DNA of 64,000 nucleotides from Armatimonadota bacterium (lineage in GTDB: Bacteria; Armatimonadota; Fimbriimonadia; Fimbriimonadales; Fimbriimonadaceae). The stretch lies in NCBI GenBank assembly GCA_037138755.1, contig JBAXHT010000001.1, forward strand, positions 31,805 through 95,804, given 5' to 3'. Shown piece after piece: positions 48,238-53,420 of this stretch (its first letter is position 1; each line of letters opens with the position of its first letter). A program made the translations under genes and the position numbers. The notes beneath the pieces were generated by a model. The model saw nothing but the letters and a program-made list of their open reading frames with translations. It had not been told where the DNA came from and did not search any database.

Positions 48238-49389
48238 ATGGACCTTCTCACAATTCGGCACGATCTGCACGCTCACCCCCAGATTCGCTTTGAGGAGACC
48301 TATGCGAGCGAGCTGATTCAGCGGGAGCTGTCGGCTCTGGGAATTGAATTCAAAGCTGGATTGGCTAAGGGCACCGGAGTTTTGGGCTATTTGCCCGCGA
48401 CTTCTGATCCAGCGAGCGCCCCGACGATTGCTTTACGTGCCGACATCGACGCACTCCCGATTCACGAGGAGACGGGCAAGCCCTATGCAAGCACGATTCC
48501 GGGCCGGATGCATGCTTGTGGACATGATGGGCACACGACAATCTTGTTGGGGGTTGCTTCCGCTTTGGCAAATCAGGCGGTTCGACCGAATAACGTCTTG
48601 ATGGTTTTTCAGCCCGCCGAGGAAGGTGGGGCCGGGGGAGATTTGATGGTCAAGGACGGTTGCTTGAACGGTTCGCTCCTGGGCAAGAAAGCAGACATGA
48701 TGTTCGGGTTACACGGCTGGACGACCGTGAAGATTGGTCATGTGGCGACGAAAGTTGGGCCGATGATGGCTTCGACAGATGAGTTTTACGTCGAGATGGT
48801 CGGGCAAGGCGGACACGCGGCGGCTCCGGAGAGCACTCGCGATCCGATTGTGGCGATTGCGTCGTTCATCACGACGGTTCAGCAGATTGCTTCGCGGAAC
48901 ACCGAACCGTTCGACAACATCGTCGTGACAGTTGGGCAAGTTCATGGCGGAACCGCGAACAATATTATTCCGATGTCCGCGATGGTTCACGGGACGATTC
49001 GGACGATGAACGCGGAGACTCGGGTGATGGCGAAGAAGCGGCTGGAGCAGGTGGCCCACGGCGTCGCTGCGGCACACGATGTCGAGGCAAAGGTGACCAT
49101 TAATGAAGGGTATCCGGTCGTGGTGAACCACGAAGACGCAGTTGCGCGGTTCGTGACAGTAGCGCGTGGCGTGCTGGGCGAAGACAAAGTCAGCGACAAA
49201 GCCGAGCCGACAATGGGAGGCGAGGATTTCGCTTATTACTCGTCGGAGTGCCCTTGTTGCTTCTACCAGTTGGGTCTGATTCCCGAAGGTGTCGAAGAGA
49301 TTCCAAGCGTGCACACGCCGCACTTTGACTTCAATGATGATGCTCTAGAGATCGGGGTTCGCGTGATGACTGCGTTGGCGTTGTCGTAG
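48238..49389 (+). CDS. M20D family amidohydrolase
   Basis: HAHPQI.FEE, ALRADIDALPI, MHACGHDGH, FQPAEEG, GGHAA.P, MGGEDF, HTPHFDF. Confidence 0.93.
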   Translation: MDLLTIRHDLHAHPQIRFEETYASELIQRELSALGIEFKAGLAKGTGVLGYLPATSDPASAPTIALRADIDALPIHEETGKPYASTIPGRMHACGHDGHTTILLGVASALANQAVRPNNVLMVFQPAEEGGAGGDLMVKDGCLNGSLLGKKADMMFGLHGWTTVKIGHVATKVGPMMASTDEFYVEMVGQGGHAAAPESTRDPIVAIASFITTVQQIASRNTEPFDNIVVTVGQVHGGTANNIIPMSAMVHGTIRTMNAETRVMAKKRLEQVAHGVAAAHDVEAKVTINEGYPVVVNHEDAVARFVTVARGVLGEDKVSDKAEPTMGGEDFAYYSSECPCCFYQLGLIPEGVEEIPSVHTPHFDFNDDALEIGVRVMTALALS

Positions 49390-49419
49390 CCCCGGCGTCC
49401 ACGCCAGGATCCGGAACCC
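49322..49419 (+). repeat. Direct repeat copy 1 (attL-like): amidohydrolase 3' end plus REP-like hairpin
   Basis: 96/98 identical to 51492-51589. The two mismatches are synonymous (AAT/AAC, CGC/CGG). Confidence 0.95.
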
Positions 49420-49656
49420 GGCAGGGACGCGCCAGAGTGTGCAGACTCGAAGCTTCGACAGAGATTATTACGCGGTGAGTAGCGAGCAGATGCTCAACCT
49501 GGAGCCGTCATGTAGAACCTCGAACAGAAAAATCAGATATCAACTACAAATTATTTTGAAGTCTTTTCCAATTTGGTCAGTACTTGGGTTATAATTCACA
49601 ATAGCGACAGCACTATTGAGGAAGCAATATTTGTAACTTGCTTAGAGAATGCACTA

Positions 49657-49899
49657 ATGGATATCCCTCCCAAGTCTGGTTCGATCATTAATCCCAATCC
49701 AATTTTCAAGGTTTTTTTGAGGGCGGTTGGATTATGCGTACTGCTTTTGCTCGGGTTTATCACAGAGAAACGGTTGAACGTTGTTACTGAGTGGAGGTAT
49801 CAGAATCGTGTTAAGTCTGCCGCTTGTGTTGACGATTCGAAGCCTACCGAGAAGGATTTCATGGAGGCACTCCAAAGTAGTGTAAGGAGGCAAAATTGA
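49657..49899 (+). CDS. Possible 80-aa single-TM protein
   Basis: ATG 49657, hydrophobic VFLRAVGLCVLLLLGFI, stop overlaps the next start. It may be spurious. Confidence 0.3.
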   Translation: MDIPPKSGSIINPNPIFKVFLRAVGLCVLLLLGFITEKRLNVVTEWRYQNRVKSAACVDDSKPTEKDFMEALQSSVRRQN

Positions 49900-50483
49900 G
49901 GCGCACTACTGGACTCACTCTGATCGAACTCATCACGGTGATCGCTATCCTCTGCGCTCTTGCGGGACTAGCTTTCTCTTTGACATCCCCAGCCCGCGAA
50001 TCGGCCAAGCAAAGAGCATGTGTAAAGCAGCTGGAACAGATTTTTGTCGGACTTTCACTCTACGCCGCCGACTACGATGCAGAAAGTCTCTATCCAGAAC
50101 TTCACGGCCTATCATACATTGGTATAACTGGCAATACGTTCGCGCCATACGTGAGCAAAGAGCTTTGGTTCTGTCCCGAGGTTCCGCAGCATTTACGCTC
50201 GGGCAGAATTTCAACTTACAGCTCTAGTATTCTAGTAGCTCCCGTAGACAGTAGCGGCAACATTTCGAGTTTTCGCAAAGCTGCCATCAGCATGGAGAAA
50301 CAGCTAGGTACCGATATGTTTGTAGTGGAATGTACCGCTCACGACGAATTATATTACGCCCCGTCAGAACGTTCAGTTGACTTATCGTTAGCCACTCCCC
50401 ATAAGTGCTTGCTCCGCGTAAATGGCTCCGTTTTCTGCGGAAGATACAAACCACCACGAGACTTCATTTTGACCACTCCGTAG
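49896..50483 (+). CDS. Prepilin-type N-terminal cleavage/methylation domain protein
   Basis: G|LTLIELITVIAILCALAGL class III signal with E5, ARESAKQRACVKQL, YAADYD. TAAGGAGG lies 5 nt before the TTG start. Confidence 0.88.
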   Translation: MRRTTGLTLIELITVIAILCALAGLAFSLTSPARESAKQRACVKQLEQIFVGLSLYAADYDAESLYPELHGLSYIGITGNTFAPYVSKELWFCPEVPQHLRSGRISTYSSSILVAPVDSSGNISSFRKAAISMEKQLGTDMFVVECTAHDELYYAPSERSVDLSLATPHKCLLRVNGSVFCGRYKPPRDFILTTP

Positions 50484-50492
50484 GTTAGAACC

Positions 50493-50792
50493 ATGCAAAA
50501 ACTAAAATCACTCTCCCCTATCGCTGCTCTCGCTTTGGGAATCCTGATCGCAGGCTTCAGCACAGCATTGCCGCCAGTTCCATGCAACAAGAGCATGATT
50601 TTCCAGTGCGCTGAAGGATGTGTCCGAACAGAAGGCGGCCAATACAACTGCTGTAGCACGGCAGGCGGCGGATGCTGTGCACGACTATGTCGCCCCATTT
50701 TTTGTAACGGTCAAGGTTGCACCAACGGAAACAATGCTGCTGCGGGGAGCGTTATTCCAGATTCAGTCTGTGCAGACCCAGCCTGTGAATAA
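50493..50792 (+). CDS. Secreted cysteine-rich peptide (12 Cys in about 74 mature residues)
   Basis: Sec signal MQKLKSLSPIAALALGILIAGFSTA. Cys spacing C-x7-C-x3-C-x9-CC-x6-CC-x3-C-x4-C-x4-C-x16-C-x4-C. Confidence 0.75.
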   Translation: MQKLKSLSPIAALALGILIAGFSTALPPVPCNKSMIFQCAEGCVRTEGGQYNCCSTAGGGCCARLCRPIFCNGQGCTNGNNAAAGSVIPDSVCADPACE

Positions 50793-51396
50793 TCGACTTT
50801 CTAAGAGAGCACAGTTTTTAACCCTGGTAAGCATCGTTTTGCTTGCAACACTGGTTACAGTGTTCTTGCGGTGGGGAGATGTTCGTACCCGGAGGCGAAA
50901 CGATGTCACTCGATTTGTTGAATTCGTGAATGCTGGTCGATACACGGAGGCATTTTCACTCACCGATGAATCTTGCCCAGAAGGGATGCTTCGGCTTTCA
51001 CGTCAATCAGCTACGAGAATTTTCGAGTCATATGTACGATCCGCAAAGCAACCACCGCAGTTGCGTGTCGTTAGTATCCTGGAAGGTGAAGGAAACAGTA
51101 GTGATAGGTTCACTGTAAGTGATCCGCATAAACCCACGTCGATGGAGTTGTACATTCGGCGAGATGCATCTGGAAACTGGAATTTTAGCTCCACTGAAAC
51201 GATGTTCCTTCTAGTGTTCTACTGCGGTGAGGATCGCATAGATAGGTTCACAAGACTCCTCGCTGCCCTGGAGCAGAATCAGGAGGGTTGCTTTCCTATG
51301 GTGCAGGGTAGGGTCACAACCCCAGATCGTATCCGAAGATTCCTTTCCGGAGAACTCCCCTCCAACCAAGTCTTCACATACGACTCGTGTCCCTAG
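50785..51396 (+). CDS. Membrane-anchored protein with an NTF2-like/DUF4878-type helix motif
   Basis: GTG 50785 overlaps the peptide stop. N-terminal TM, then FVEFVNAGRYTEAFSL, beta strands and a GNW motif. Confidence 0.6.
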   Translation: MNNRLSKRAQFLTLVSIVLLATLVTVFLRWGDVRTRRRNDVTRFVEFVNAGRYTEAFSLTDESCPEGMLRLSRQSATRIFESYVRSAKQPPQLRVVSILEGEGNSSDRFTVSDPHKPTSMELYIRRDASGNWNFSSTETMFLLVFYCGEDRIDRFTRLLAALEQNQEGCFPMVQGRVTTPDRIRRFLSGELPSNQVFTYDSCP

Positions 51397-51439: not shown

Positions 51440-51559
51440 GGCTGTCTGCCTCTTGAGGACGTGGAACCAAGGTCAAGCTTGCATACGCCAGACTTTGACT
51501 TCAACGATGATGCTCTAGAGATCGGGGTTCGGGTGATGACTGCGTTGGCGTTGTCGTAG
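51440..51559 (+). pseudogene. Orphan duplicate of the amidohydrolase C-terminus
   Basis: Reads [39 protein letters not shown], aligning without gaps to [39 protein letters not shown]. Confidence 0.85.
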
Positions 51560-51589
51560 CCCCGGCGTCCACGCCAGGATCCGGAACCC
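51492..51589 (+). repeat. Direct repeat copy 2 (attR-like)
   Basis: 96/98 identical to 49322-49419. Confidence 0.95.
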
Positions 51590-51609
51590 CACGGGGACGC
51601 CGGGGGTAC
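51556..51609. repeat. REPIN-like doublet of inverted REP hairpins
   Basis: GTAGCCCCGGCGTCC (51556-51570) matches the reverse complement of GGACGCCGGGGGTAC (51595-51609) at 14/15. GTAG foot plus the internal palindrome GGCGT-CC-ACGCC. Confidence 0.65.
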
Positions 51610-51623
51610 AATCAGGTTCCCGC

Positions 51624-53420
51624 ATGGATCAATCGCGCATCCGCAATTTCTGCATCATCGCGCATATCGACCACGGCAAGTCCACCCTTGCCGACCGCCT
51701 CATCGAACGATGTGGCGCGATTCGAGGCACCGCTCAGGAGCAGATGCTGGACTCGATGGACATCGAGAGGGAGCGCGGGATTACGATCAAGATGGCGGCA
51801 GTTCGGCTGCTTTACATCGCTAAAGATGGGCTTGAGTACGAGCTGAATCTGATCGACACTCCGGGGCACGTTGACTTCACTTATGAGGTTTCGCGGGCAC
51901 TTGCAGCTTGTGAGGGAGCTTTGTTGGTTGTCGATGCAAGCCAAGGAGTTGAGGCACAGACCATCGCAAACGCAAACATGGCGATGAACCAGAACTTGGA
52001 GATTGTTCCGGTGATCAACAAGATTGACCTTCCTCACGCGGACGTTGAAAGGGCGCGGGAAGAGATTGAGATGGCGGTTGCAGTGGATGCGACCGACGCG
52101 ATTCCGTGCTCGGCTAAGGCAGGAATTGGAATTGATGAGATTTTGGAGGCGATTGTCGCCCGGATTCCGCCGCCAGATGGTCGGGACGACAAGCCGCTTC
52201 GGGCCTTGATTTACGATTCCCACTTCGACGCCTACCAGGGCGCGGTGGCCTACGTTCGGGTTCGCGACGGAGCGGTCAAGAAGGGCGATGTCATCAAGAT
52301 GATGAACACCGGATCGACGTTCGTGGTCGATTCAACCGGCCACTTCGGGCCGGGTTTGCAGGTCAATGACGGGATTTTCACTGGAGAAGTTGGTTACATT
52401 ACCGCAGCGATGAAGTCGATTGGCGACGCCCAGGTGGGCGACACGGTCACAACTCGCGATGAAGGTGCTTCGGAACCTCTGCCGGGTTACCGGAAAGCTC
52501 TGTCAATGGTCTTCTGCGGCCTTTACCCGTCGGACGGGGATCAGTACGAAGACCTCCGGGATGCGATTGCGAAGCTCCAACTGAACGACGCCTCGCTGCA
52601 ATTTGAACCCGAAACATCGGCCGCGCTCGGGTTCGGGTTCCGCTGCGGATTCCTTGGCTTGCTGCACATGGACATCGCTCGCGAGCGGCTAGAGCGCGAG
52701 TTCAATCTCGACCTCATTCTCACCGCGCCAAGCGTGGACTACATCGTTCATAAGAAGAACGGCGACGTTGAGCACATCTCGAACCCCAGCGAATTTCCGG
52801 ACGCGAACGAGATTTTGGCGATCGAGGAGCCGACGGTTAAGGCGACGATCATGGTGCCCAACGAGTACGTTGGCGCGGTGATGACGCTTTGCCAAGAAAG
52901 GCGCGGGATCTATACTAAGACGGAGTACCCGACTCCCCAACGCGTGATCTTGTACTACACGCTTCCGATGGGCGAGATCTTGCTCGACTTCTTCGATAAG
53001 CTGAAGTCGAACACTCGCGGCTACGCCTCTTTCGACTATGATCCAGACGAGTACACGGCTTCGGAGTTGGTGAAGCTTGATATCCTTTTGAACGGCGATA
53101 TTGTCGACGCTCTTTCGTTCATTGTTCATAAGTCCTTCTCGTACAACCGGGGACGCGCGGTGGTCGAACAGCTTCGAAAAGTCGTTCCTCGCCAGCAGTT
53201 CGAAGTCCGAGTTCAGGCGGCGATCGGGGCGAAAGTGATTGCAGCGGACACCATTAAGCCGTTCCGAAAGAACGTCATTGCCAAGTGCTACGGCGGCGAC
53301 ATTTCGCGTAAGCGCAAGCTTCTCGAGAAGCAGAAAGAAGGTAAGAAACGCATGAAGCAAATCGGCTCGGTTGAGCTTCCTCAGGAAGCGTTCCTTAGCG
53401 TTCTGAAGGTTGCAGAGTAG
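51624..53420 (+). CDS. lepA: Translation elongation factor 4 (LepA)
   Basis: [81 protein letters not shown]. Confidence 0.98.

Follow-up and report, generated by a model that had tools for sequence, protein, structure and literature searches.

Minor pilins of type IVb pili have been described in pairs with a secreted protein, namely TcpB with TcpF in Vibrio cholerae and CofB with CofJ in enterotoxigenic Escherichia coli (ETEC) (PMC9565799, PMC10120004, PMC6048534). In these pairs the pilin gene lies beside the gene for a Sec-exported soluble protein within one operon; the soluble protein is believed to attach to the pilin, and the filament machine to display or export it. A cassette alike in this arrangement occupies an islet of 2.17 kb within a stretch of 64,000 nucleotides (the window, to which coordinates refer unless a genome or locus is named) from an Armatimonadota bacterium of the family Fimbriimonadaceae (assembly GCA_037138755.1, contig JBAXHT010000001.1, positions 31,805 to 95,804). 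Its four open reading frames (ORFs), all in the same orientation, encode a short bitopic protein (gene 1), a prepilin-type protein (gene 2, the pilin), an exported mini-protein with 12 Cys (gene 3) and a membrane-anchored partner (gene 4). Binding and display of the mini-protein by a filament are proposed here by analogy. Unlike the type IVb pairs, the cassette is separate from assembly genes and its proteins bear no sequence or fold relation to them; the passenger has approximately 70 residues with up to six putative disulfides, whereas that of the type IVb pairs is of approximately 35 kDa, and two bitopic helpers are added. Since neither homology nor linkage to assembly genes is present, the resemblance would be one of working in a like manner rather than of membership.

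Three further groups of described proteins resemble single components. DUF1559 proteins with an H-X9-DG motif (SBP_bac_10, PF07596) are prepilin-type proteins of Planctomycetota, Verrucomicrobiota and Armatimonadota. The cassette pilin shares with them the class III signal peptide and the next 60 or so residues (Cys-x-SNLKQ, LYAxD), and both are members of the same lineage-specific expansion. Unlike them, it has a shorter C-terminal domain with CxxHDExYY and GSVxxGR motifs of its own and lacks the H-X9-DG spacing, and the cassette pilins are the sole DUF1559-related subfamily found strictly paired with a Cys-rich ORF. In type II secretion a pseudopilus likewise expels periplasmic, disulfide-bonded cargo via a secretin, of which this genome has four (PF00263, 114-172 bits); unlike the mini-protein, however, type II cargo genes do not have a dedicated pseudopilin in a one-to-one relation, and the GspG model matches only the N-terminal helix of the cassette pilin (18.5 bits, cut-off 88.85). 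The partner is like the bitopic NTF2-like envelope proteins (VirB8-type, MlaC-type, MTB12/DUF3887) in having an N-terminal anchor or export signal followed by a non-cytoplasmic domain that may be an alpha+beta cone, and unlike them in that its matches are weak and that it has extra C-terminal helices with a TTPERL..GE motif.

An earlier note on this DNA, made from the sequence without database searches, had described a prepilin gene with a perfect Shine-Dalgarno sequence, a 99 amino acid Sec-exported peptide with 12 Cys and a single-spanning membrane protein gene overlapping it, and all of these are present. Gene 1 (49657-49899, forward strand, as are the others) encodes an 80 amino acid bitopic protein. 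The pilin gene (49896-50483) starts with TTG at 49896, 5 nt downstream of the Shine-Dalgarno sequence TAAGGAGG read directly at 49883-49890, and encodes a 195 amino acid prepilin-type protein with a class III signal peptide. Gene 3 (50493-50792) encodes the 99 amino acid Sec-type precursor of the mini-protein, of which the mature part comprises approximately residues 26-99, and gene 4 (50785-51396, GTG start) a bitopic protein of 203 amino acids with an N-terminal transmembrane anchor. The stop codon of gene 1 overlaps the pilin start, and the partner GTG at 50785 overlaps the mini-protein TAA at 50790-50792 (GTGAATAA). Such stop/start overlaps are conserved among homologous cassettes, and the genes are in all appearance translationally coupled. 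Each product carries a signal that directs it to the inner membrane or across it: class III in the pilin, a Sec signal with an AxA-type site in the mini-protein and N-terminal signal-anchors in the products of genes 1 and 4. As read from its sequence, the cassette is an operon of four products predicted to be targeted to the envelope, with a pilin-type protein at the centre.

No description of the cassette was found in the literature searched, and only one of its four proteins has a family match in the libraries consulted. The earlier note recognised no named system with this architecture; consistent with this, neither mini-protein nor partner had a match in Pfam, NCBIfam, PADLOC, PHROGs or the sequences of the PDB. 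The cassette is real, since it recurs in some 40 related genomes. When the mini-protein alone was searched for in all six frames of 400 genomes of the phylum, two matches stood out, both of them small signal-peptide ORFs with the same Cys pattern directly 3' of a prepilin-type gene; in one (G139) all 12 Cys aligned and a partner homologue followed with a stop/start overlap. Using a hidden Markov model (HMM) of eight mini-protein sequences, the family was found in 23 of 228 genomes of the order, representing 14 of 68 genera. When HMMs of the three proteins were run on all ORFs of the 25 mini-protein places of this order-wide search, a pilin gene lay directly upstream on the same strand in every one, and a partner gene directly downstream in 19. 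A mini-protein HMM of 23 sequences extended the family to 15 of 401 genomes sampled across the phylum, six other families included, with a pilin upstream in 11 of 13 new places and none in the short stretch fetched at the other two. An HMM of 19 partner sequences gave approximately 33 full-length places. Twelve further partner places were examined, with a pilin upstream in 11 and a Cys-rich ORF between the two in 10, the exceptions being a contig edge and a frameshifted copy; several of the Cys-rich ORFs between pilin and partner were too divergent for the mini-protein HMM. Finally, an HMM of 15 pilin sequences separated approximately 49 full-length places (E <= 1e-32) from hundreds of generic DUF1559-type genes that matched only positions 1 to ~110. 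Of these 49 or so, approximately 38 have an adjoining Cys-rich ORF, about five consist of pilin and partner without mini-protein (G530, G007, G498:C74, G422:C195 and G190), and one or two are alone or at contig edges. Mini-protein with partner but without pilin was never seen in the mini-protein, partner and pilin searches, nor were orphan partner genes found apart from a pilin. The pilin is the invariant hub of the cassette, because every combination includes it and mini-protein with partner alone never occurs. By the earlier note its proposal would be refuted if the trio did not occur together elsewhere; the genes do so in dozens of genomes, and the cassette is a real functional unit.

Individual cassettes vary in layout and number. 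The gap between pilin and partner is too short for a Cys-rich ORF in G498:C74 (L135) and G530:C1 (L030), the two ORFs overlap in G007:C12 (L134), and G422:C195 (L138) likewise has no Cys-rich ORF between them. One genome (G547:C18, L067 5328-7964) has a tandem arrangement of pilin-peptide-pilin-peptide-partner, in which the pilin/mini-protein pair is duplicated as a unit, and another (G491) has two partner paralogues. Within the source genome neither mini-protein nor partner has a paralogue. A pattern scan of GTDB genomes with a narrowed alignment gave three loci, the carriers being Fimbriimonadaceae/Armatimonadota metagenome-assembled genomes. Word-indexed searching with the single mini-protein or partner sequence returned, among 5.8 billion proteins, nothing beyond the window itself, and the mini-protein profile matched three sequences of the same 5.8 billion, annotated where named as 'hypothetical protein [Armatimonadetes bacterium]'.

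The pilin begins with MRRTTG, followed after the cleavage site by LTLIELITVIAIL, and so combines a short basic leader ending in Gly, a hydrophobic helix and Glu at +5, as expected of a class III signal. It scored 17.8 bits with TIGR02532, above the cut-off of 16.3, and 19.7 bits with Pfam N_methyl, just below the cut-off of 21.2; among five cassette homologues the latter model gave 24.6-26.5 bits for three, 20.0 for one and no match for one. The cleavage motif is kept across 21 cassette pilins, Asp replacing Glu in G547 and G548. Alignments revealed the conserved motifs RExxRQxxCxSNLxQIY, LYAAD, CP, CxxHDExYY and GSVxxGR, and three conserved Cys. The cassette pilins form a distinct, short subfamily with a relation to DUF1559 confined to the N-terminal third. 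No match of the window pilin to PF07596 was obtained at E <= 1, and its homologues matched model positions 3-63 of 268 only, one of five scoring above the cut-off (25.5 against 23.3 bits). The C-terminal H-X9-DG motif is absent, as no His precedes the Gly-Ser at a conserved distance, the consensus being CxxHDExYY ... PFxIxLxxxGSVxxGR, and alignment with a resident DUF1559-type paralogue was limited to residues 1-66. The source genome contains approximately 60 prepilin-like ORFs with nearly identical N-termini, among which the islet pilin is an outlier and the only one with a Cys-rich ORF next downstream. One match to the A24 prepilin peptidase family was found in the genome (PF01478, 47.7 bits). 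The gene for this sole peptidase (C1:25702-26022) lies about 6 kb before the start of the window, beside a prepilin-type ORF of 759 amino acids (C1:20000-22342).

By the positive-inside rule applied over its homologues, the partner is predicted to have its N-terminus in and its C-terminus out, placing the domain in the periplasm. AlphaFold2 gave a model (predicted local distance difference test, pLDDT, 83; predicted template modelling score, pTM, 0.71) comprising the transmembrane helix, more helices, four strands and three C-terminal helices, the conserved TTPERL..GE motif residing in this helical extension. The best Foldseek matches were MTB12 (8z9b; E 0.019, TM-score 0.61 by target), DUF3887, ketosteroid isomerases and MlaC; all were weak (E 0.02-0.3, TM-score 0.3-0.6) and none reached E <= 0.001. 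No match to a Pfam NTF2-type family, or to any sequence family, was obtained. The description of the partner as NTF2-like thus receives weak support at the level of the fold (Foldseek E >= 0.019) and none at the level of the family. Over its first ~85 positions, which cover the transmembrane anchor and helices with 'W..(I/L)Y', the partner HMM also matches other bitopic proteins of 200-300 amino acids in most genomes of the order, and the partner is therefore one branch of a larger bitopic family that is uncharacterised. Genes of this wider family are sometimes clustered, for example at G081:C2:2151038, 2155530 and 2156273.

The product of gene 1 has a single transmembrane segment (FLRAVGLCVLLLLGFI) and a distal Cys (KSAAC); the gene is in the ORF list and was also called on a Logan contig discussed below. 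The earlier note began at its ATG (49657) and did not mention the gene. In at least 13 homologous cassettes a single-spanning ORF of 50-85 amino acids has its stop only a few codons from the start of the pilin gene, and its product usually carries [ST]EPG after the transmembrane segment and Gly/Ala-Cys near the C-terminus. In G019, G023 (two places) and G030 the position is held by a bitopic, thioredoxin-like CxxC protein of ~120-215 amino acids. The CxxC and a downstream Pro-Arg are invariant in these four proteins, which had no Pfam match and gave sub-threshold PDB profile matches to thioredoxin-like chains (2m72, E 0.25; 3hcz, E 0.57). These features support, without proving, provision by the operon of its own putative thiol-disulfide helper. 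Because a thioredoxin-like CxxC gene shares the operon in some lineages, it may be argued that the mini-protein has its Cys in disulfides.

What the cassette does can only be inferred. The reading preferred, and held tentatively, is that of an accessory module of a type IV filament that presents or exports a disulfide-locked mini-protein. Prepilin peptidase would process the pilin-like protein, which would enter a resident type IV filament machine (pilus or pseudopilus) as a low-abundance subunit. Once in the periplasm, the mini-protein would adopt a rigid fold stabilised by up to six disulfides, dock on its cognate pilin, and be carried at the filament tip or pushed through a secretin in the manner of TcpB-TcpF and CofB-CofJ. 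The NTF2-like bitopic protein, tethered to the membrane, may hold the pilin, its passenger or both in the periplasm or assist in their assembly. Thiol-disulfide chemistry may be aided by gene 1 or, in the lineages where it takes that place, by the thioredoxin-like CxxC protein. For a mini-protein so displayed, adhesion or substrate capture is a more likely role than killing. In favour of this reading are the recurrence and fixed gene order of the cassette, the position of the pilin as hub, the conserved stop/start overlaps, the conserved Cys together with the confident beta-rich model and the thioredoxin-like genes, the presence of a prepilin peptidase and four secretins, the predicted periplasmic domain of the partner, the low dN/dS, the RNA contig across mini-protein and partner, and the known pairs of a pilin with a Sec-exported protein. 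Several findings weigh against this filament module. The pilin belongs to the DUF1559-related expansion, with its approximately 60 paralogues in this genome, and we know of no member of that expansion that forms a filament. In the type IVb systems the secreted protein is encoded inside the pilus assembly operon, whereas no assembly gene is adjacent here; indeed, no pilus or secretion machinery gene adjoins any of the cassettes, the neighbours of which vary between genera so that the cassette alone is conserved. Gene 1 of the window has neither the EPG nor a CxxC motif. Finally, RNA support comes from a single contig of low depth, and DNA may be present in the library concerned.

Chief among the rival readings is a complex that stays bound to the cell in its envelope. 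The pilin, anchored in the inner membrane through its N-terminal helix, would there serve as a periplasmic binding or scaffold protein and would join the mini-protein and the NTF2-like partner in a unit for capture, uptake or sensing. DUF1559/H-X9-DG proteins are suspected to be periplasmic binding or scaffold proteins, and to our knowledge a filament role has not been demonstrated for any of them; in the literature searched the family is named in just four papers, and in no title or abstract. The N-terminal third that the pilin shares with this massively expanded group would accord with such a complex, as would the separation of the cassette from machinery genes and the precedent of NTF2-like domains such as MlaC that act as periplasmic ligand carriers. 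Against a resident complex, no riboswitch or structured RNA was found by Rfam search and folding of the leader, and the cassette has no conserved neighbour that encodes a transporter or binding protein. Retention of the cleavage motif with Glu at +5 (Asp in the two genomes mentioned) would moreover be expected if filament assembly matters. A resident complex is accordingly regarded as possible, although rather unlikely.

The earlier note had suggested a possible antagonistic arrangement of effector and immunity. On such a reading the disulfide-rich peptide would be secreted as a toxin in the manner of a bacteriocin, the producer would be protected by the bitopic partner, and the pilin would help in export. 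Sec-dependent class II bacteriocins with their immunity proteins are alike in that, on a mobile islet, the gene for a small exported peptide containing Cys precedes one for a membrane protein. The cassette is a small mobile unit with a patchy distribution, poorer in G+C than the flanking DNA at 17 of 19 loci, and polymorphic toxin systems include NTF2-like immunity proteins. In comparisons of syntenic sister species the cassette proteins lie at the fast end of the divergence of neighbouring genes, and the partner is the fastest evolving component (54-56% identity, against 66-94% for most neighbours). However, the ratio of nonsynonymous to synonymous substitution (dN/dS) between sister species, where dS was measurable, was 0.03-0.17. 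The hypervariability among orthologues for which the earlier note had proposed to look was not observed, and the sequences instead indicate purifying selection on the cassette in Fimbriimonadales and other Armatimonadota. The coupling of effector to immunity at the core of that proposal does not hold up either: the invariant link is that between pilin and peptide rather than between peptide and partner, since the partner is missing from six of 25 peptide places, the intact operons of G019, G023 and G483 included. Units of pilin and partner without peptide exist, whereas the partner without pilin does not. Bacteriocin and immunity genes would be expected to show obligate linkage, frequent orphan immunity genes and diversifying evolution, none of which was found; no paralogue arrays were seen, and PADLOC and PHROGs gave no defence-system or phage family match in the cassette apart from the pilin helix. 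Linkage to a pilin and a partner of 200 amino acids with a globular ectodomain are further differences from the class II systems. An antagonistic function is thus considered improbable, because linkage follows the pilin, a quarter of the loci do without the partner, and neither hypervariability nor orphan immunity genes are evident. The part of the earlier proposal that is favoured is the pilin as a display or export partner.

The properties of the mini-protein bear on the nature of the presumed passenger. The precursor has a K-rich n-region, a hydrophobic core and a cleavage region STA/LPP, AxA-type sites being common in the family, with CC pairs at residues 54-55 and 61-62. The family motif is PC-x7/8-C-x3-C-x10-CC[SN]T-x4-CC-x-R-x-C-x4-C ... 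C-x4-C. Among 23 aligned homologues six Cys are invariant and four nearly so, and all 12 align with those of a homologue from another genus. AlphaFold2, supplied with the alignment of 23 sequences, predicted an all-beta domain of five strands with pLDDT >90 over residues 31-99. Foldseek searches with this model gave best matches of E 3.7 in the PDB and E 0.37 in the viral set BFVD, with TM-scores < 0.35; Pfam had no match for any of eight family members, and a profile search of PDB sequences was likewise without a match. The Cys density had been compared in the earlier note to that of knottins and defensins, a likeness not borne out by the model, which matches no solved fold and no described Cys framework, although Foldseek is weak on small disulfide-rich domains and a distant fold relation is possible. 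The mini-protein is thus a candidate for a new disulfide-rich scaffold. That it is instead a periplasmic metal-binding peptide, resembling metallothioneins or copper-storage proteins and served by the other products as accessory proteins, is suggested by the presence of 12 Cys within about 70 residues and is very improbable given the long Cys spacing with interleaved conserved aromatic and hydrophobic positions, the lack of CxC or CxxC clusters, the confident beta-rich globular model, the thioredoxin-like genes that in some lineages point to disulfides, and the lack of a linked metal regulator or transporter.

Automatic gene calling has tended to pass over the mini-protein, and six-frame searching was required to find the family. 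The only other record of the islet DNA is a Logan contig of 2173 nt, broken at the repeats described below and likely derived from the source metagenome of the window, on which the mini-protein was omitted and a 258 amino acid frame from a GTG at 50620 called instead. The omission of such genes by gene callers explains why the family is nearly missing from protein databases. A codon score trained on the long ORFs of the genome also favoured the longer frame over the 173 nt overlap (50620-50792; +11.5 against -6.5 for the mini-protein frame). It was rejected as biased against a Cys/Gly-rich frame, because in the +1 frame each TGC or GGC codon of such a sequence becomes GCN (Ala), and a model trained on average proteins scores Cys unfavourably. 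A phmmer search of 1.84 billion representatives with the 258 amino acid frame gave one spurious match of 35 bits. Among six-frame ORFs of 70-160 amino acids in the source genome, 32 of 8772 have at least 10 Cys and three of those a crude signal peptide; since so few combine the two features and the Cys align in homologues, a secreted ORF with 12 Cys exceeds chance expectation. The only other small ORFs with at least 10 Cys and a signal-like N-terminus are at C1:1218886 (121 amino acids, 10 Cys), approximately 1.9 kb downstream of a DUF1559-type gene, and at C1:1947974 (91 amino acids), the product of which is Lys/Cys-rich and metallothionein-like (CCAKGNCCKDKKC...). Conservation shows the mini-protein frame to be the real gene. 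A metatranscriptome contig of 196 nt matches 50640-50835 exactly and spans the junction of mini-protein and partner, a weak indication of their co-transcription; two other short contigs are all that the same library contains for the surrounding 20 kb. That the 99 amino acid frame is a chance ORF and the 258 amino acid frame the true gene, as the call and the biased score would have it, is virtually precluded by the retention of the mini-protein with aligned Cys in more than 35 genomes and by alignments in which every partner homologue starts at the mini-protein stop and none has the 55-residue extension.

The islet lies between a gene for an M20 peptidase (48238-49389) and lepA (51624-53420), and its G+C content is 0.40-0.52 compared with 0.57-0.60 in the flanks. 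A repeat search and pairwise alignment revealed direct repeats of ~127 nt, near-identical over alignment columns 55 to 181, that duplicate the 3' end of the M20 gene. The left copy (49304-49430) comprises the M20 3' end and the first part of the downstream hairpin, and the right copy (51474-51600) a pseudo 3' end of the M20 gene and the complete hairpin before lepA. The hairpin, a perfect inverted repeat (51556-51609), lies between the M20 stop and lepA; the left repeat copy contains its first half only. Copies of ~83% identity at C3:227247-227298 and C2:50907-50958 of the genome identify it as a dispersed element like repetitive extragenic palindromes (REP-like). The closest genome of the same genus (G002) has an empty site with lepA directly after the M20 gene, too diverged (81-87%) for the native repeat copy to be distinguished, and the islet is present in none of 30 relatives examined. 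In another genome (G497) the cassette is bounded by direct repeats of ~135 nt, spaced 2138 nt, that take in the 3' end of the adjacent thrS gene (L062 4940-5077, 7078-7214), a duplication paralleling that of the M20 gene in the window. The two are independent insertions, with duplications of 127-137 nt that include the 3' end of a housekeeping gene, copy identity of 85-94% and spacings of 2170 and 2138 nt. No integrase is present at either of these repeat-bounded cassettes. The duplications fit a Campbell-type integration, in which a circular DNA bearing a diverged gene end enters by a single crossover. Cassettes of one genus may be as little as 21-39% identical and two places each occur in G139, G503, G422, G019, G023, G030, G483 and G498, which fits old lineages moving between genomes. 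Consensus scans of the islet detected no sigma-70 promoter and no intrinsic terminator. A perfect TATAAT hexamer occurs at 49590-49595 in the AT-rich islet leader, ~60 nt 5' of the gene 1 ATG, with no recognisable -35 element.

DUF1559-type pilins are among the largest expansions in Armatimonadota, Planctomycetota and Verrucomicrobiota, and we know of none with an established function. It is possible, though doubtful, that the small mobile cassettes of Armatimonadota represent a new class of filament-delivered adhesins or effectors, each combining a dedicated pilin, a mini-protein of undescribed fold with up to six disulfides, and private folding or holding factors. Small exported proteins encoded beside pilin-like genes may be systematically overlooked, because gene callers miss proteins such as this one, for which three matches were obtained in 5.8 billion sequences. 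The target duplications at two sites would, if the proposal is true, point to movement of the cassettes by recombination, free of an integrase. A cleanly bounded pilin subfamily locked to one exported partner makes direct interaction and localisation testable with three or four recombinant proteins, and, were the proposal true, it would provide the first concrete job for a branch of the DUF1559-type pilin expansion.

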